Assembly (NCBI GenBank): GCA_026413945.1
Contig: JAOAJX010000005.1
Span: forward strand, 65,247-94,832
Source: Candidatus Iainarchaeum sp.
GTDB taxonomy: Archaea > Iainarchaeota > Iainarchaeia > Iainarchaeales > DTGL01
Direction of reading: 5' to 3'
Length of the DNA: 29,586 nucleotides
Every line of letters begins with the position of its first letter. Position 1 is the first letter of the stretch. Positions 16,626 to 23,541 of this stretch are shown here, one piece after another. Position numbers and translations under genes: made by a program. A model generated the notes under the pieces. It ran no database searches and had not been told where the DNA came from. It worked only from the letters and a program-made list of their open reading frames with translations.

Positions 16626-17006
16626 TCACCTTACCTCTATCCTTTGCCCAGAGCCATTGCTCTTTTCAAATATTATTTCTAATATTCCGTTCTTGAAGGT
16701 TTTGCTTGTAGGCTTCTCTTTTACTGCTGAAGGTAATCTTATTGTTGTGTAATAATCACTTTGATTTTCAGTGCCCTCTTGTTTGACTTTTATAAATAGG
16801 CGATTAGCTGAAACCCGTAGATCAATATCTTTTTCTTTTTTTCCTGGCAGTTCCACAGTTACAAATACTTTATTTTCACTTTCCCAAATATCATGTACTA
16901 ATTGAGAATGTCCAGTCTCTTGAATTCCTTCTCTATTGTTGGCTCTCTTTCCGAAAAACCAGCTTTCTAAATCATCAAAGTCACTAAAAAAATCATCATC
17001 GAACAT
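16626..17006 (-). CDS. Small heat shock protein (Hsp20/alpha-crystallin)
   Basis: [26 protein letters not shown] and the C-terminal IxV motif IEV. Confidence 0.92.
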
Positions 17007-17055: not shown

Positions 17056-17484
17056 TCATTTTATTTCAATCAGCTTCTTTCCAATGGCTTTCTCCTTGCT
17101 TTTTGGGACTTTAATCTCCAAAACGCCATTCTCGTATTTTGCATCAGCCTTTTCCAGTTCTGCGTTTTCTGGCAACGCTACAAACCTGTAGAAACCAGAG
17201 TAGTTGCGCTCCATCCTGTAAAAGTTTCTTGTCTTTTCCTCGTGTTTTTCCCTCTTTTTTGCTGTAATTTCTAAACCGTTGTCAACTATGTTTATGTTTA
17301 TATCTTGCTTTTGAACTCCTGGCATATCTATACTAAGATGATATGCATCATCCGATTCCCACAGGTCTGCTGCCGGATGCCTCATCCTGCTTTCCACTGG
17401 TAATTCATCGTCGAATTCATAAAAGCTCGAAAGCATACGTCTCATCTCTTCAAATGGATCAAGAAAGCCAAACCTTCTCCTCAT
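17056..17484 (-). CDS. Small heat shock protein (Hsp20/alpha-crystallin)
   Basis: DPFEEMRR, DMPGV, MERNYSGFYR, AKYENGVLEI and the C-terminal IEI motif. Strong GGAGGTGA RBS. Confidence 0.96.
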   Translation of the reverse strand: MRRRFGFLDPFEEMRRMLSSFYEFDDELPVESRMRHPAADLWESDDAYHLSIDMPGVQKQDININIVDNGLEITAKKREKHEEKTRNFYRMERNYSGFYRFVALPENAELEKADAKYENGVLEIKVPKSKEKAIGKKLIEIK

Positions 17485-17511: not shown

Positions 17512-17542
17512 TTTATTGAACATATTCAATATTTATTGAACA
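17512..17542. promoter_or_regulatory. Candidate operator TATTGAA-cata-TTCAATA-tt-TATTGAA between hsp20 and the divergent HTH gene
   Basis: Two overlapping 7-bp inverted repeats, plus an 11-bp direct repeat tttattgaaca at 20-bp spacing (17512 and 17532). Confidence 0.7.
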
Positions 17543-17545
17543 AAT

Positions 17546-17561
17546 TATTTAAAAAGCTTTC
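17546..17561 (-). promoter_or_regulatory. BRE/TATA promoter candidate for the hsp20-hsp20-cdc48 operon
   Basis: Minus strand reads GAAAGCTTTTTAAATA, directly upstream of the palindromic array. Confidence 0.55.
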
Positions 17562-17577
17562 TCAACCTATTCTACTT

Positions 17578-17964
17578 ATGGCTCGAGCCTCTTTTGTCAT
17601 TCGCTTAAGGAAAGTAGAGCGCCTCTCTAACCCAAATTTTGATAACGCTATTGAATACCTATGCAAATCTCTGTGTTTAGAAGCTTATGAAACAGATACT
17701 GCAAAGCAAATCCTGCTGGAGCTACTTAAATCAAGAGAAGGTCTAAGCTCAACAGAGCTTTCTATGCGTATAAACAAATCTAGGGGGGCTATTATAAACC
17801 AACTCAATCGCCTAATAAATGCTGGCCTTATTGTGAGAGAAAGAAGACGCTATCAATTGCGAGCAAGTACATTATCAAATACTATTGCAGAGATGCAAGA
17901 AGATGTTGAACGCATAATGAAAAATATGTTAGAAATTGCTCGTATGTTAGATGAACTCACATAA
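17578..17964 (+). CDS. Winged helix-turn-helix transcriptional regulator (TrmB/ArsR-like)
   Basis: GLSSTELSMRINKSRGAIINQLNRLINAGLIVRERRRYQL is a wHTH pattern, followed by an amphipathic dimerisation-type helix. ATG17578 preferred over TTG17536. Confidence 0.88.
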   Translation: MARASFVIRLRKVERLSNPNFDNAIEYLCKSLCLEAYETDTAKQILLELLKSREGLSSTELSMRINKSRGAIINQLNRLINAGLIVRERRRYQLRASTLSNTIAEMQEDVERIMKNMLEIARMLDELT

Positions 17965-18440: not shown

Positions 18441-19565
18441 CTAACCCCCTTTTTCAAGTACAAGTATGCTTTCCCTGGTTTTTCCAACAAGCTCTATGCG
18501 ATTGCGCATACATGGAACTTTTCTTGCAAAAATCCTGTCAAGCTTTGTGAAGCCGGAATCTTCGGCAATGGTTTCAATAACTTCGTCTGACTCAACAATT
18601 AAATCTGGCAAACAACCCCCAGCAACAACAAGAAAGGCTAAGCCGCCTTTTTGCAATGATTGATACATTTTTTCAATAGCTTTCTTCATATCAGAAAAAT
18701 AGGCCAACGCTTCATTTGGCAGGTCTTTGTGCATCTCCGACAAACTAAAATTTTCGGCCTGATTTTTTGAAACATCTGATCCAATGTAAGTATGCAAACA
18801 AGGGGTGGGTTGATCAAGAAAAAGACCAAGTTCTAGCTTATAGACTTTAGCGTATTCCTCTTTCCCGAGATAAGGCGGCGATGTAATTATTGATTGCACT
18901 TTTTTCTTCAATTGGTAAAAACGTGCATCAGCTTCTTTAATAATGGGCTCAGGCCCAATTGCCTGATGGCTTTCTAAATCTCTTATCATGCTTTCTGCCT
19001 TCCTACGGAAAATTTTTTTTAATGGAAAAAAACTTCTTTTTATCCTTCGTAAGCTCCTACCTTGCTTTTTGACCAAAGCAACTTTTGAGGCAGAATCAAT
19101 AAGTGCAAGCATCAGAAAATCGCGTGCTCTTTCATCTTTCAATTCTTTTATGTTTTGTTTAATATTGCAAATATCACCTATATTTTCCTTGTGAAAGTAC
19201 CTCCTGAAAATTTTTTGGGCTTTAGCATAGCGCTCCTTTTTGACACAAAAATCAAGAAAAAACCTTAATTTTTTAGTATCATAGTTTCTAGTTTTTGCTT
19301 TGCTAACAAGGACTGCTAATGGTGAAATATCTATTCCATAAGATTTAATATTTCTTTGTTTTGCTGTAAGCAAAGTAGTGCCACAGCCACAAAAAGGATC
19401 ATAGATTGGGCCTCTTAACATGAACTCTTGAATAAACCAGTCAACAAGCTCCTTTGAGAAGCCTTCCTTATAATAGAACCAATTGTGTATTGGGTGCTCA
19501 AAATTTTTCTTGAAAGTAACCCAGTCAGCAATTTCTTTTGGTGCACGCAAAGACATCCTTCTCAT
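18441..19565 (-). CDS. Orphan amino (probably N4-cytosine) DNA methyltransferase
   Basis: HNWFYYKEGFS, SAM-binding motif I DPFCGCGTT, and C-terminal motif IV IITSPPY. No nuclease gene is adjacent. Confidence 0.88.
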   Translation of the reverse strand: MRRMSLRAPKEIADWVTFKKNFEHPIHNWFYYKEGFSKELVDWFIQEFMLRGPIYDPFCGCGTTLLTAKQRNIKSYGIDISPLAVLVSKAKTRNYDTKKLRFFLDFCVKKERYAKAQKIFRRYFHKENIGDICNIKQNIKELKDERARDFLMLALIDSASKVALVKKQGRSLRRIKRSFFPLKKIFRRKAESMIRDLESHQAIGPEPIIKEADARFYQLKKKVQSIITSPPYLGKEEYAKVYKLELGLFLDQPTPCLHTYIGSDVSKNQAENFSLSEMHKDLPNEALAYFSDMKKAIEKMYQSLQKGGLAFLVVAGGCLPDLIVESDEVIETIAEDSGFTKLDRIFARKVPCMRNRIELVGKTRESILVLEKGG

Positions 19566-19661
19566 AAAAATACCTTGTAAGATCAATGTTAAAATTTTTC
19601 CTCATAGAGACACAATAATAATTTTTTATTTGTTGTGATGCTAAATTATTTTGGTGATTAA

Positions 19662-20567
19662 TTGAAAGCAAAAATCTTAGCACTAACTTTGTTTTTAGTA
19701 ATTCTTTTAGCTAAATTGTCAACTGGTGCAGATGAGCCACAAGAGGTGGAAGTTGGAATATATATCTTGAATATTGGCAAGTTTGAAGTAAGTACTGGCT
19801 CATACACAGTTGACTTCTATCTCTCGATGAAATGTAGAGACGCATGTGATCCTAGCAATTTTGAGTTTATGAATGGTCGTGCAACTTCTATAGATAAACT
19901 CATCGATGAACCAAATGAAAAGTTTTATCGTATTCAAGCATCTCTTGCAGAAAATATAGACCTTAAAAAATATCCTTTTGATGAACACTTTTTGACAATA
20001 CAATTAGAAGATAAGAGAAACAAATCTGATAAATTGGTTTATGTGCCAGACAAAAAATCAGCCGGGGTTGATCCATCTGTAGTTATAGTTGGATGGGATT
20101 TGCTTGGCTATGAGCAAGAAGTAGCTGAACATTTTTATGAACCATATGAAGAGACTTACTCAAGGTTTATATTCAAAATTCACATAAGGAGAATACTGCT
20201 TGCCGCAATAATCAAGACGTTCCTCCCAGTAATATTCATTGTAATAGCAGGTCTGCTTGCGCTGCTTATACACGAGCAAGACAAACTATGGACAAGGATT
20301 GGCATAAACACCTCTTCCCTCATTGCTTCTGTAATGTTTCATCTTAATGTCACCTCTAGCATACCGCCAGTTGGCTACCTGACATTTGCTGACAAATTCA
20401 TGATATCAACTTATTCAATATTACTGCTGAGCTTGTTTAGTACAGTGATGATGATGCGTCATGCAAAACGCAAAGACGACGTAACGTATAATAGAATCTA
20501 TCTCGTTGCTTTGTATTGCATTCCAGTATTGGCAGTGTTTCTATATGGCCTTGTAATACTCATATAA
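19662..20567 (+). CDS. Pentameric ligand-gated ion channel (Pro-loop/Cys-loop superfamily, GLIC/ELIC-like)
   Basis: Signal peptide; beta1-2 VEVGIYILNIGKFEVSTGSYTVDFYL; Pro-loop DLKKYPFD; GW; pre-M1 IRR; M1 proline (FLP); M2 RIGINTSSLIA; M2-M3 loop IPPVGYLTFADKF; M4. TTG start with GGTGA RBS. Confidence 0.93.
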   Translation: MKAKILALTLFLVILLAKLSTGADEPQEVEVGIYILNIGKFEVSTGSYTVDFYLSMKCRDACDPSNFEFMNGRATSIDKLIDEPNEKFYRIQASLAENIDLKKYPFDEHFLTIQLEDKRNKSDKLVYVPDKKSAGVDPSVVIVGWDLLGYEQEVAEHFYEPYEETYSRFIFKIHIRRILLAAIIKTFLPVIFIVIAGLLALLIHEQDKLWTRIGINTSSLIASVMFHLNVTSSIPPVGYLTFADKFMISTYSILLLSLFSTVMMMRHAKRKDDVTYNRIYLVALYCIPVLAVFLYGLVILI

Positions 20568-20593: not shown

Positions 20594-21400
20594 TTACTCT
20601 AAAAGCTTTTTCGCAATGTCAACAAACTTGACATTTATTTGCTTAAGAAGCTCCGAAGGCACAGTGTATACTACTGTTTTACTTTTCTCAGTGCTTAAAG
20701 AGTGTATAACTTGCAAAGTCCTTAGGTGCATTCCACCTTTCACACTTGCAAGCTCCATCGCAGCCTTTTTGAGATTCTGTGCTGCTTCAAGCTCACCCTG
20801 AGCTCTTAATATAATGGCCCTTTTTTCCCTTTCAGCTTCCGCTTCTTTTGAAATAACCCTTACGAGGCTTTCAGGTAAAATTATTTCTTTAAGGTCAACA
20901 GATTCAACTTTTATGCCCCAAGGGTCTGTAACTCTGTCAAGTATTTCTCCTATTCTTTTTGCTATTTTATCTCTCTGTGTCAAAAGCTCATCAAGATTTA
21001 CCTCACCTATTGCTTCACGCATCGTTGTCTGTGCAAGCTGACTTACAGCATAATGATACTGCTTTATCTCAAGTATGGCAAGTATGGGGTTGCTTACTCT
21101 GTAATATACCACAGCATTTATTACCGCAGACACATTGTCTTTTGTCATTGTATCTTGCCTAGGCACATCTATTACGCGAGTTCTTATATCAACCCTTTCC
21201 CAAGATTGTATTATTGGAAAAACTATGTTAAGGCCAGGTTCCATTATTCCACTATACTTACCAAAAGTAAATCTAACTCCTCTTTCGTATTGATGTACAA
21301 TTTTTATTGATACCAAAATGATTATTACCATAATTGGAACGCCAAAAAACAACAGACTGCCAAAAATTAAAACCCAAAATGGAGTTTGAAGAAGAAGCAT
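20594..21400 (-). CDS. SPFH/band 7 (stomatin/slipin) membrane protein, copy 2
   Basis: QYERGVRFTFG, PGL, TKDNVS, LAQTTMR, DPWGIKV and AEAEREKRA motifs. Confidence 0.95.
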   Translation of the reverse strand: MLLLQTPFWVLIFGSLLFFGVPIMVIIILVSIKIVHQYERGVRFTFGKYSGIMEPGLNIVFPIIQSWERVDIRTRVIDVPRQDTMTKDNVSAVINAVVYYRVSNPILAILEIKQYHYAVSQLAQTTMREAIGEVNLDELLTQRDKIAKRIGEILDRVTDPWGIKVESVDLKEIILPESLVRVISKEAEAEREKRAIILRAQGELEAAQNLKKAAMELASVKGGMHLRTLQVIHSLSTEKSKTVVYTVPSELLKQINVKFVDIAKKLLE

Positions 21401-22245
21401 CAGTGACTCACCTTCTTTTCCTTGCTCTTGTGCTCAGGATAGCCTTCTATTGCCCTTAAGTTGTCGAGAGGCACAAAGAATATTACCTCGTTTGATGGAT
21501 CTGATGAAATGCTTCCAAGTTCCTGTAGTGTTCTCAGATTAAGTCCGCCCTCAACTTCATTAAGCGTTTGTGCTGCTTTTGCTATAATCTCCGAAGCTGC
21601 GGCTTCACCACTCGCTTTTATTATTGCCGCCCTTTTGAGCCTTTCAGCCTCTGCAGCCTTTGCCATAATATTTTTCATTGATTCTGGTAGCTCAATATGT
21701 TTTAACTCTACAGAAAGCACTTCAATGCCCCAAGGATCAGATGCCTTATCCACTAGCATTTGAATCTTTTTTGAAACTTCATCCCTGTTGCTTAAAACTT
21801 CATCTAAGGTCATCTCGCCTATAACATCACGCATTGTTGTCTGTGCAAGCTGGCTTACTGCATAGTGGTAGTTTTCAACCACTAATACTGCCTTTTCAGC
21901 CTGCTCTTTCCTTATTCTATAGTACAATACTGCATCAACACTTATAGAAACATTATCTTTGGTTATGGGCGTCTGTTCTGGCACATCAACGACATCAACG
22001 CGTAAATCAACTATTGTTGTCCACTGAATCAAGGGCAATATTACATTAAGACCAGGTTGCAAAATGCCGGAATATTTTCCAAGTGTAAAAAGAATGCCAC
22101 GCTGATACTCATACACAATCCTCACTGACATCAAAAGCAATAATAAGAGAACGAAACCCATAAAGAAGAAGAGCTCTGGTGCAATAAACAAACTTAGGAA
22201 AGTCAAAAAAGCATAAAGTAAAAGCACCCAACCCCATAAACGCAT
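21400..22245 (-). CDS. SPFH/band 7 (stomatin/slipin) membrane protein, copy 1
   Basis: EYQRGILFTLG, PGL, ITKDNVS, LAQTTMR, DPWGIEV and AEAER motifs. Its stop overlaps the next start (TGATG). Confidence 0.95.
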   Translation of the reverse strand: MRLWGWVLLLYAFLTFLSLFIAPELFFFMGFVLLLLLLMSVRIVYEYQRGILFTLGKYSGILQPGLNVILPLIQWTTIVDLRVDVVDVPEQTPITKDNVSISVDAVLYYRIRKEQAEKAVLVVENYHYAVSQLAQTTMRDVIGEMTLDEVLSNRDEVSKKIQMLVDKASDPWGIEVLSVELKHIELPESMKNIMAKAAEAERLKRAAIIKASGEAAASEIIAKAAQTLNEVEGGLNLRTLQELGSISSDPSNEVIFFVPLDNLRAIEGYPEHKSKEKKVSH

Positions 22246-22314: not shown

Positions 22315-22428
22315 TCCCGCCTCCCGGATTTGCACCGGGGATCTTCCGGTAACAGCCCCTGCCTTAACAAGGCAAGCTGTTGCTACCAAGCCTACAGCCG
22401 GACGCATTAGCTACTATGCAAAGGCGGG
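22315..22428 (-). tRNA. tRNA-Tyr(GTA) with a 41-nt intron at position 37/38 (intron 22351-22391)
   Basis: Acceptor CCCGCCT/AGGCGGG-A with the archaeal Tyr C1:G72 and A73; D stem GCAT/ATGC; anticodon stem TCCGG/CCGGA with loop CT-GTA-G|intron|A; T stem CCCGG/CCGGG. CCA is not encoded. Confidence 0.92.
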
Positions 22429-22894: not shown

Positions 22895-23455
22895 TCACTC
22901 CTTTAGCAAAAGTTTTTCGATTACTTCTTCAGTATTAACTTCAGTATTTATACACCCAGCTCTCGAAAGCAGCACAGCCTGTGGTGCAACTCCAATATCT
23001 TTAAGGACATCAAACGCAATCATAGCCTCTTTATAACAGCACACACCAAGAACTGCCTTTGGCTTATATCTGTTAACTAGCTCAAGCACAATGCTTCCAC
23101 CCGGACAAACAAAAATGCCCTTGTAGCCAAGCTCTTTAGCTATCGCTTTTATTGAACCAATTTTGCATTCATTGCAGCACACACATTGCAGACCTTCCGA
23201 ATCATAAATTGCTTTGCATCTTGTGGCATTTCTCATGCAATGCGGCAAGAACAGAAGGCGTTCGTTGTAAGGCACTTTTTTATATGCTATTTCATTCATC
23301 TTATTTCTAAATTCAATGTGTGTATACTCAACCCACCTTTCACTCAGCCCGAGCTTTTTTGCTATTTTTTCAGTTGCTTTCGCAATGTTTAGGTGCGTTC
23401 CAGTATCAAAAGCTTTTGATACGGCTTCTTTTATTTTTTCAACTGTATTTTCCAC
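22895..23455 (-). CDS. DUF116 family Cys-rich protein
   Basis: RLLFLPHCMR..C, C..C..C, PGGS and AVLGVCC..E..GCINT motifs. True start is probably GTG23455 after GGAAGG, because the ORF-track extension runs through tRNA-Thr. Confidence 0.88.
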   Translation of the reverse strand: MENTVEKIKEAVSKAFDTGTHLNIAKATEKIAKKLGLSERWVEYTHIEFRNKMNEIAYKKVPYNERLLFLPHCMRNATRCKAIYDSEGLQCVCCNECKIGSIKAIAKELGYKGIFVCPGGSIVLELVNRYKPKAVLGVCCYKEAMIAFDVLKDIGVAPQAVLLSRAGCINTEVNTEEVIEKLLLKE

Positions 23456-23469
23456 AGAAAAACCTTCCA

Positions 23470-23541
23470 AGCCTCGGGTGGGATTCGAACCCACGATCTG
23501 CTGATTACAAGTCAGCTGCATTGCCGCTATGCTACCGAGGC
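23470..23541 (-). tRNA. tRNA-Thr(TGT)
   Basis: GCCTCGG/CCGAGGC-T acceptor, GCAT/ATGC D stem, GCTGA-CTTGTAA-TCAGC anticodon arm, GTGGG-TTCGAAT-CCCAC T arm. TTTATAA box lies about 26 nt upstream. Confidence 0.97.

Follow-up and report, generated by a model that had tools for sequence, protein, structure and literature searches.

A compact pentameric ligand-gated ion channel homolog from a small-genome archaeon and its relatives

The channel gene, its locus and its fold

The window, the whole 29,586-nucleotide stretch of Candidatus Iainarchaeum sp. [quoted passage not shown] Residues 1-22 (19662..19727, + strand) form a predicted signal peptide, marked by a hydrophobic helix at 2-19 in the AlphaFold2 (AF2) secondary structure and probably cleaved near STG/AD; the hydrophobic N-termini of relatives vary, and precede a conserved EP..V.VG at the start of β1. 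The host assembly, 948,649 bp at 92% completeness, is that of a small-genome DPANN archaeon, in keeping with the reduced genome proposed in an earlier note on this DNA, and the closest relatives, at 86-90% identity, carry the label Candidatus Iainarchaeum. Comparison with two congeners gives a dN/dS of 0.045, which at the sequence level indicates strong purifying selection on the channel gene, and the GC content around the gene (0.33-0.38) is inside the window's range.

Two congeneric MAGs keep the gene at this level of identity together with its neighbours (MTase, SPFH pair, DUF2666 and DUF116). The divergent neighbour, a type II-like DNA methyltransferase, is common only to these closest congeners (the window and 2 loci). 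Clustering of the ORFs of 80 related loci and the window reveals no recurring neighbour; the channel itself is found in 79 of the 80 loci, while the next-commonest ORF clusters occur in at most 5. Since the channel alone recurs, it appears to lack an operon partner, and we find no conserved neighbour gene in this set that points to a ligand. A role in a defence system was considered and rejected, the channel having no PADLOC match. A promoter and terminator scan built for bacteria, not archaea, returned nothing over shuffle expectation at the locus; no RNA runs containing the stretch are listed, and the sole listed run is of DNA and may be the source of the stretch.

We find that the protein is a genuine pLGIC subunit, as the earlier note had claimed, and thus an unusually short member of the group that includes the nicotinic and GABA receptors. 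GLIC (Gloeobacter violaceus, proton-gated; PDB 3eam, 4hfi) is the closest solved structure by both sequence and fold, although identity is only 19-20%. The single sequence finds GLIC in phmmer at E ≈ 4e-12, and a family profile aligns with it end-to-end (profile 29-307 to GLIC 12-314) at E = 6e-39. The AF2 single-chain model (pLDDT 96.7, pTM 0.85) contains nine strands and four helices, a β-sandwich followed by four transmembrane helices; its best Foldseek matches are GLIC chains (E = 2.9e-22, TM 0.82/0.80), and the PDB matches at E ≤ 0.001 number at least 500, those listed all being pLGIC chains (GLIC, GlyR, GABA-A). The E-values from phmmer, the family profile and Foldseek rule out a chance likeness to pLGICs. 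The profile search with ligand-binding domain (LBD) and transmembrane (TM) models suggested in the earlier note is borne out in its E-values but not at curated thresholds: PF02931 (LBD) narrowly misses its cut-off (25.4 vs 26 bits) and PF02932 (TM) falls below its own (9.6 vs 28.1), while the NCBIfam models TIGR00860 (E = 9.2e-18, 64.2 vs 280.2) and NF033918 (E = 2.5e-13, 50.1 vs 500) give significant E-values and miss their cut-offs widely. PF02931 is above cut-off in none of five relatives' genomes.

All seven superfamily-defining residues of Table 1 in Jaiteh 2016 are kept (Y104, P105, D107, W145, R177, P189 and P235), each in 73-85 of 85 family rows. The criteria in that table include, for the β6-β7 loop tip, an [F/Y]PxD motif whose Pro is absolutely conserved; the corresponding Pro-loop signature, Y104-P105-F106-D107 (19971..19982, + strand), aligns with GLIC Y119-P120-F121-D122, with P105 in 85/85 rows and D107 in 81/85. 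The further markers given there are a pre-M1 Arg that forms a salt bridge to the Pro-loop Asp, a β9 core Trp, an M1 kink Pro and an M2-M3 Pro. R177, W145, P189 and P235 align with GLIC R192, W160, P204 and P247, and occur in 73 (with 12 Lys in addition), 81, 83 and 85 of the 85 rows, respectively.

A shortened extracellular domain and its predicted subunit interface

The extracellular β-sandwich (ECD; aa 23-177, 19728..20192, + strand), defined from AF2 strands and the profile alignment, comprises ~155 residues when counted after the predicted signal helix H2-19 and up to the pre-M1 Arg177, with strands at 27-38, 47-58, 67-69, 72-83, 86-96, 108-117, 125-129, 145-159 and 164-177. This is the GLIC domain minus 26 residues in the profile alignment, 20 of them after β2 (GLIC R51-A70), where the earlier note had described a collapse, and 6 in the β4-β5 hairpin (GLIC I92-D97). 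The missing parts are the peripheral, partly unresolved β2-β3 segment that carries WxP, and the tip of the β4-β5 hairpin; accordingly, landmark spacings in the compact family are 18 and 33, compared to 34-45 and 39 in five canonical pLGICs. The 20-residue deletion removes the WxP motif, and the Trp loss noted earlier is thus confirmed, with GLIC W72-I-P74-E75 opposite D63-P64-S65-N66. The loop-D Trp is also absent, GLIC W47 aligning with C58, while the conserved Asn after the WxP position is retained (N71). The loop-A motif WxPD/E is described as "extremely conserved" in a published pLGIC paper, and its absence implies that loop A is remodelled. The protein is likewise without a fused sensor domain, as had been stated, because the GLIC alignment spans the entire mature protein.

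[quoted passage not shown] The five canonical bacterial pLGICs used for comparison (L103-L107), from the phylum that includes a Limisphaerales-labelled genome, share the Pro-loop Pro, the Trp, the pre-M1 Arg and the M2-M3 Pro (5/5 each) and the M1 Pro (4/5), and match the compact family in P105-W145 and W145-R177 spacing exactly or to within 7 residues, with R177-P235 within 1. They keep W-x-P (5/5) and the loop-D Trp and pass the Pfam LBD cut-off, whereas the compact family does none of these, and a very long branch parts the two groups (SH-aLRT 100, subject to long-branch effects). The channel core is also common to DeCLIC and the multidomain prokaryotic pLGICs, but DeCLIC-type channels are described as adding N-terminal periplasmic domains, and the compact family goes the opposite way. 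The Pro-loop receptors of Euryarchaeota and Thaumarchaeota described in the text of Jaiteh 2016 and Tasneem 2005 resemble the compact channel in being Cys-less, patchily distributed and in possession of the Table 1 residues; the core in Jaiteh 2016 is given as ~320 aligned positions, and that of the compact clade is shorter and below the Pfam threshold. The survey text of Jaiteh 2016 names no DPANN phylum among four names sought, and its S1 dataset of 561 sequences may include a compact member.

A three-copy model gives an ipSAE of 0.45 (runs 0.54, 0.30 and 0.45) compared to 0.00 for the best control, a value that likeness to solved pLGIC pentamers may explain; in calibration on solved structures, 20 of 30 homo-pair proteins and 1 of 23 single-chain proteins attained the ipSAE mark. 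At least 75% of contacts are common to the three runs, with partner pLDDT of at least 77. One modelled face comprises residues 45-47, 68, 70-73, 96, 98-99, 118-119 and 157-162 with M2 and the M2-M3 loop, and the other residues 34-40, 51, 53, 76-80, 90, 92, 132-137 and 141-144 with M1 and M2. These predicted contacts correspond to the canonical principal (loops A, B and C) and complementary (loops D, E and F) faces, together with M2-M2 packing.

The pocket residues of GLIC identified in a published paper, R77, R105, R133, N152, E177 and E181, correspond to E68, R90, K118, D137, Y162 and Y166, such that R90 is the sole GLIC pocket residue kept and the other five differ. Each of the six equivalents is at least 90% conserved among 92 distinct family sequences, which suggests a specific small ligand, and all but one of them fall within the modelled interface, where E68 and R90 make contact across subunits. 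Gating would follow from the binding of a particular small molecule or ion at the canonical site between subunits; with acidic, basic and aromatic side chains together, this pocket would be suited to a zwitterionic or charged ligand, e.g., an amino acid or amine. Conservation of the interface could, however, reflect assembly and not ligand binding.

Excerpts of PMC8326787 place the proton sensors of GLIC at E35 (β1-β2 loop) and E243 (M2 19'). The corresponding residues here are G46, a Gly in 97% of the family, and T231, and because both glutamates are replaced, the channel is probably not gated by GLIC's proton mechanism. Protons or metal ions could still gate or strongly modulate it through two histidines, one in loop C (H157) and one at M2 15' (H227), which are 100% and 98% conserved in the 92 distinct sequences and both fall in the modelled interface, with H227 facing the neighbouring subunit. 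That GLIC is proton-gated, and that the one DNA run containing the stretch is a hot-spring metagenome, would fit such sensors, but the replacement of the GLIC glutamates does not, and the isolate names of the MAGs suggest habitats (groundwater, lakes, deep subsurface) too varied for a single shared pH or metal regime to be obvious. We regard proton or metal gating as rather unlikely, if worth keeping in view, and prefer a small ligand in the inter-subunit pocket.

Pore, coupling residues and the cysteine pair

The transmembrane domain (20196..20561, + strand; AF2 helices and GLIC alignment) consists of M1 (179-202), M2 (206-231), M3 (242-269) and M4 (273-300), with an M3-M4 link of only 3 residues. 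The pore-lining M2 (20277..20354, + strand) was placed in register from the GLIC alignment and makes M2-M2 contacts in the three-copy model: D207 (-5'), K208 (-4'), a Leu, W210 (-2'), T211 (-1') and R212 (0'), followed by S218 (6'), I221 (9'), M225 (13') and H227 (15'). With R212 as 0', M2 is identical to GLIC at S218 (6'), L220 (8'), I221 (9'), A222 (10') and F226 (14'), and lacks a -1' or -2' Glu, having W210-T211-R212 instead, both as the earlier note described. Conservation is high at R212 (98%), D207 (97%), K208 (97%), S218 (95%), M225 (95%) and H227 (98%) in the 92 distinct sequences, 9' is Leu, Ile or Val in 76 of 85 rows, and the commonest filter string, D-P-D-K-I-T-T-R, accounts for 30 of the 92. 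The charge-selectivity motifs of metazoan channels, cationic GE[K/R] and the Pro-preceded anionic A[R/K], are both absent from this protein. A cation filter of the classical type is disfavoured by the lack of a -1'/-2' Glu next to the conserved 0' Arg; the survey text of Jaiteh 2016 states that the -2'/-1'/0' site does not predict selectivity among prokaryotes, and the W/T-T-R motif, as a sequence feature, cannot reveal ion selectivity.

Every residue associated with ECD-TMD coupling is present, i.e., the Pro-loop YPFD, the pre-M1 Arg, the M2-M3 Pro and the M1 Pro. This bears on whether the pLGIC fold now serves as a constitutively open leak pore, a non-conducting receptor or a structural membrane protein, a reading that draws on the remodelled loop A with its lost WxP and on the statement in the text of Jaiteh 2016 that prokaryotic pLGICs have no known function in vivo. 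Retention of the full coupling set, and a pore that is polar at 6' (S218) and largely hydrophobic at 9' and 13' (M225) in the manner of a typical gated pore, make such reuse improbable.

The only cysteines of the protein are C58, C62 and C286, with none from 63 to 285, and the eukaryote-type Cys-loop pair flanking the β6-β7 loop is absent. C58-R-D-A-C62 (19833..19847, + strand) is the CxxxC pair that the earlier note recorded as gained; it lies at the end of β2, at the ECD apex. Co-occurrence over 101 family rows is all-or-none (90 CxxxC, 1 CxxxxC, 10 without either and 0 with a single Cys), and all 9 bacterial-labelled rows lack both cysteines. The suggestion that the channel is redox-sensitive, with reversible oxidation of C58-x3-C62 governing gating, finds the pair in the extracellular domain and kept in 90 of the 101 rows, but is weakened on three counts. 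In pLGIC topology the end of β2 is the tip of the domain most distant from the membrane, well away from where the ECD couples to the TMD; the 9 bacterial-labelled members retain in full the other conserved residues of the pocket and of coupling, and the pair is thus dispensable for the function of the family; and a structural disulfide yields just such strict all-or-none co-occurrence. We therefore consider redox gating decidedly improbable, and suggest from the pattern of co-occurrence that the archaeal pair is probably a structural disulfide stapling the shortened apical loop.

The compact family and its significance

The channel is not a singular minimal protein, as the earlier description could be read: a related-locus search seeded with a 26-row alignment confirmed relatives in 214 stretches of species-representative genomes, mostly of DPANN archaea, and at E ≤ 1e-30 the sequences that share its compact architecture fall into at least 184 clusters of 50% identity. 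Archaeal members span Iainarchaeota, Micrarchaeota, Aenigmatarchaeota, Woesearchaeota, Pacearchaeota and Nanoarchaeota, and bacterial ones occur in Bipolaricaulota, Chloroflexota, Planctomycetota and Verrucomicrobiota. A search in the phylum of one MAG labelled "Alphaproteobacteria" yielded only further compact members, in genomes of ~1 Mb, and this label appears to be wrong. Prevalence is low, at 8 of 215 genomes of the host's own phylum, 3 of 7 of its genus and 21 of 401 in a second set, so that the earlier statement that pLGICs are uncommon in archaea holds for prevalence but not for breadth, with this one branch spanning all the archaeal groups named above. Among 120 matches listed, every source-given name is "hypothetical protein". 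Only 6 of the best 150 cluster representatives exceed 380 aa, and among these 6 and two shorter representatives, P0230 (AAA_35) alone carries an extra domain over the Pfam cut-off.

In the gene tree, Iainarchaeota rows join Micrarchaeota (SH-aLRT 98), and Woesearchaeota, Pacearchaeota and Nanoarchaeota form one clade (SH-aLRT 100), so that the tree largely follows taxonomy; rooted on the five canonical sequences, the bacterial pairs are basal, at a point where long branches meet and from which neither donor nor direction can be inferred. That the gene was gained recently by horizontal transfer, or entered the assembly as a binning contaminant, as the patchy spread and the bacterial members might suggest, is extremely improbable, given that two congeneric MAGs carry it amid matching neighbours, with a GC content inside the window's range and a tree that largely tracks taxonomy.

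We consider it reasonably probable that the gene encodes a functional homopentameric pLGIC subunit of a distinct, compact and unnamed clade, with a small-ligand pocket, gating other than that of GLIC and a structural disulfide. The clade is a variant within pLGICs and not a new kind of system. A bolder proposal, speculative but possible, is that the clade represents the smallest pLGIC architecture in nature and has passed mostly by vertical descent in DPANN archaea, sensing, e.g., an amino acid or amine leaked by a host or neighbour and opening a pore that is not classically cation-selective; host-dependent DPANN cells would then sense a specific zwitterionic or charged metabolite through a remodelled, WxP-less orthosteric pocket. 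If true, a prokaryotic pLGIC gains a physiological role, and the family a minimal model of ligand-to-pore coupling, with some members from hot springs.

Structural work on prokaryotic pLGICs leans on a few bacterial models (GLIC, ELIC, sTeLIC and DeCLIC). The compact branch, large and strongly conserved, escapes threshold-based annotation, and it occurs across the DPANN lineages, in which genes for sensing or transport are very few. Its members indicate that the channel core tolerates loss of the β2-β3 segment, WxP and the loop-D Trp while the ECD-TMD coupling residues stay, and the family can serve studies of gating as a minimal construct found in nature, with an unusually conserved candidate ligand pocket that could be de-orphanised.

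The channel gene and its product

[quoted passage not shown] Run alone against the PDB, its sequence hits the Gloeobacter violaceus channel GLIC (E about 4e-12), with residues 87-262 aligned and a weak further match near the N-terminus, and a profile of 85 family members matches GLIC end to end at 6e-39 (profile 29-307 versus GLIC 12-314). In the profile check proposed in the earlier note, the Pfam LBD model scores the query at 25.4 bits, 0.6 bit short of its threshold of 26, and the Pfam membrane model is insignificant (E 1.4); NCBIfam LIC (9.2e-18) and LGIC_1 (2.5e-13) match with significant E-values, both far under their own cut-offs. The beta-sandwich plus four-helix fold anticipated there is predicted: an AlphaFold2 model from an 85-row alignment (pLDDT 96.7, pTM 0.85) comprises nine strands together with the four helices M1 (179-202), M2 (206-231), M3 (242-269) and M4 (273-300). 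Foldseek places GLIC chains at the top of its PDB matches to this model (E 2.9e-22, TM 0.82/0.80, 19-20% identity), followed by glycine and GABA-A receptors, and neurotransmitter-gated-channel clusters rank first in an ESM Atlas feature search (score 0.96). All seven of the superfamily's most conserved residues, as given in Table 1 of Jaiteh et al. 2016, are present on alignment to GLIC: Y104, P105, D107, W145, R177, P189 and P235, which pair with GLIC 119, 120, 122, 160, 192, 204 and 247, respectively.

The gene (window 19662-20567, + strand; 301 codons) opens with TTG, has GGTGA 4 nt 5' of this start, and is monocistronic by layout. A DNA-methyltransferase gene (18441-19586, - strand) is divergent from it, and two tandem SPFH/Band-7 (stomatin-like) paralogues (20594-21400 and 21400-22245, both - strand), the stop of one overlapping the start of the other at 21400, are convergent with it, an arrangement common to the closest congeners only. 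The gene's neighbours are also found in two congeners, the window's genome holds one channel copy, and dN/dS against two congeners is 0.045, at a dS of ~1.8 that is close to saturation. Elsewhere in the window, tandem Hsp20 genes (16626-17006 and 17056-17484, both - strand) adjoin a divergent MarR/ArsR-type winged-helix regulator (17536-17964, + strand) and may form with it a small heat-shock unit in a possible hot-spring organism. A tRNA-Asn(GTT) (22315-22402, - strand) is called at 88 nt, above standard tRNA length, and may contain an archaeal intron. The longest ORF of a DUF116 gene (22895-23521, - strand) overruns into tRNA-Thr (23470-23541, - strand); its initial residues are translated tRNA sequence, and the true start is probably a Met further downstream.

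A shortened extracellular domain and the pore

The ECD comprises residues 23-177, the approximately 155 residues claimed for it, and holds both the collapsed segment KCRDACDPSNFEFMN following beta2 and the CxxxC pair (C58-x3-C62) described in the earlier note. Relative to GLIC, the family profile lacks 20 residues directly after beta2 (GLIC R51-A70) and six in the beta4-beta5 turn (GLIC I92-D97). Comparison of landmark intervals between 92 distinct compact-family sequences (101 rows) and five canonical bacterial pLGICs shows that the family is shortened at those two sites only: the compact median is 18 versus 34-45 from F52 to N71, 33 versus 39 from N71 to P105, 39 versus 39-46 from P105 to W145 and 31 versus 31-33 from W145 to R177, with 56-57 versus 56 from R177 to P235. 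In a GLIC cryo-EM paper the 'generally resolved' part of the ECD consists of residues 15-48 and 66-192, so that most of the larger deleted segment belongs, in GLIC, to a peripheral loop of poor order. The WxPD/E motif, termed 'extremely conserved' in a paper on GLIC, is absent, as GLIC W72-I-P-E75 aligns to D63-P-S-N66, in agreement with the reported loss of its Trp; the conserved Asn after this position is retained as N71, and GLIC loop-D Trp47 is replaced by C58.

The cysteine pair reads as a structural disulfide that would staple the ECD's shortened apical loop, because it is all-or-none and dispensable in a subclade: 90 of the 101 rows have CxxxC, one has CxxxxC, ten have neither cysteine and none has a single Cys. 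Nine of these ten are bacterial-labelled (Bipolaricaulota, one Thermotogaceae-labelled row, Limisphaerales, Planctomycetota and Chloroflexota), and the tenth is gapped in that segment. Gating through a redox switch at this pair, which the earlier note had entertained, is unlikely, given this pattern and the retention of the rest of the conserved set by the bacterial-labelled members.

W210-T211-R212 precedes M2, and with R212 as 0' the alignment confirms the M2 identities with GLIC noted earlier at 6', 8', 9', 10' and 14'. R212 (0') is 98% conserved and D207 (-5') and K208 (-4') each 97%, while -2'/-1' is variable, most commonly T-T, with W-T in an Iainarchaeota/Micrarchaeota group whose loop is longer by one residue. 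S218 at 6', I/L at 9', M225 at 13' and H227 at 15' round out a typical gated-pore pattern. According to Jaiteh et al., the -2'/-1'/0' site is not predictive of selectivity in prokaryotes; the classical Glu cation filter is absent by alignment, and we conclude nothing further on selectivity.

Modelled assembly and a candidate ligand site

Residues 24-301, modelled as three copies, give a median score of 0.45 (runs 0.54, 0.30, 0.45) versus 0.00 for the best control, with at least 75% contact agreement between runs and partner pLDDT of at least 77. The model passes the mark used; among solved proteins, 20 of 30 homo-pairs and 1 of 23 single chains reach it. This pass may mirror likeness to solved pentameric pLGICs, and shows likeness, not binding, but the contacts are informative even so. 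One modelled face (45-47, 68, 70-73, 96, 98-99, 118-119, 157-162) corresponds to loops A, B and C, and the other (34-40, 51, 53, 76-80, 90, 92, 132-137, 141-144) to beta1 and loops D, E and F, with M2-M2 and M2-M1 contacts beneath.

The orthotopic/inter-subunit pocket of GLIC is given in the GLIC paper as R77, R105, R133, N152, E177 and E181, which align to E68, R90, K118, D137, Y162 and Y166 of the query. Each equivalent is at least 90% conserved in the 92 distinct family sequences, five of the six lie within the modelled interface, E68 and R90 make a cross-subunit contact, and loop C residues H157 and Y159 are 100% conserved. Binding loops are usually variable, and such conservation suggests one ligand common to the family. 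Acidic, basic and aromatic side chains occur together at these positions, which would be in keeping with a small molecule that is charged or zwitterionic. The GLIC proton-sensor glutamates E35 and E243, described in PMC8326787, are not retained, and are G46 and T231 in the query.

Distribution and history of the compact family

The query is a family member, not a singleton. A word-indexed search finds 702 proteins at E<=1e-3 out of 3,631 candidates, the best 120 of which are 256-329 aa long and 50-100% identical to the query, with 'hypothetical protein' as their only source-given name. Searched exhaustively, the 50%-identity representatives yield 3,177 matching clusters at E<=1e-3, of which 1,115 reach <=1e-10 and 184 <=1e-30. 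Among contigs from one genome per species, 240 stretches match three family motifs and 214 are confirmed, the best 80 of these being mainly from Iain-, Micr-, Aenigmat-, Woese-, Pace- and Nanoarchaeota, with Bipolaricaulota, Chloroflexota, Planctomycetota, Limisphaerales and one Bathyarchaeota row. The family falls just below Pfam gathering scores, with PF02931 above cut-off in none of five relatives' genomes, which accounts for the uniform labels.

As a rule the compact channel stands alone: only 6 of the 150 best cluster representatives exceed 380 aa, and one of eight proteins scanned (those six and two shorter) has an extra domain over the Pfam cut-off, an N-terminal AAA_35. This 704-aa protein, P0230, carries the ATPase-like domain at 12-343 (E 1.3e-33) and a compact channel module at 417-661, and could be a genuine fusion or two merged gene calls.

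The channel is present in 3 of 7 genomes of the window's genus (its own included), in 8 of 215 of its phylum (4 of 58 of high quality), and in 21 of 401 sampled genomes of a second phylum (20 of 400 without G614, an unpublished genome), identified as the Woese/Pace/Nanoarchaeota group from six loci sequence-identical, and a seventh nearly identical, to loci so labelled. In a quick maximum-likelihood tree (106 rows; SH-aLRT as the only support measure), the 101 compact rows part from the five canonical ones at 100, and because of long branches on both sides we give the root no weight. The window and two Iainarchaeum rows cluster (98) and adjoin Micrarchaeota (98, 11 rows); the 75 Woese/Pace/Nanoarchaeota rows fall together in a single clade (100), and a Bipolaricaulota clade (100) lies within a weakly supported group with Aenigmatarchaeota, uncultured-archaeon and Bathyarchaeota rows (83-87). 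For the most part the gene tree therefore mirrors DPANN taxonomy, and a history of long residence and frequent loss fits it better than recent transfer.

Some MAG labels are at odds with channel-gene placement: L074 ('Alphaproteobacteria bacterium'), L038, L065, L071 and L079 ('uncultured Methanosarcinales archaeon') and L017 ('uncultured Thermotogaceae bacterium'). L074 and L079 have exact copies among the loci of a phylum with roughly 0.6-1.8 Mb genomes, some labelled Woese-, Pace- or Nanoarchaeia, and L017 is placed inside Bipolaricaulota; these bins are probably mislabelled or chimeric and do not point to real transfers.

A literature search that covered few subscription journals found no paper linking pLGICs or ligand-gated ion channels with DPANN, and none of the papers it returned on archaeal pLGICs and the extracellular domain concerns a compact archaeal form, judged by their listings. 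The archaeal pLGICs in the text of Jaiteh et al. 2016 are from Euryarchaeota and Thaumarchaeota, and none of four DPANN phylum names sought is present there; on comparison with this main text, the compact clade is provisionally undescribed. The clade spans DPANN lineages at low prevalence and is overlooked by annotation. A dedicated HMM would bring annotation to hundreds of proteins, and the main value of the query is as a minimal natural construct and a target for de-orphanisation.
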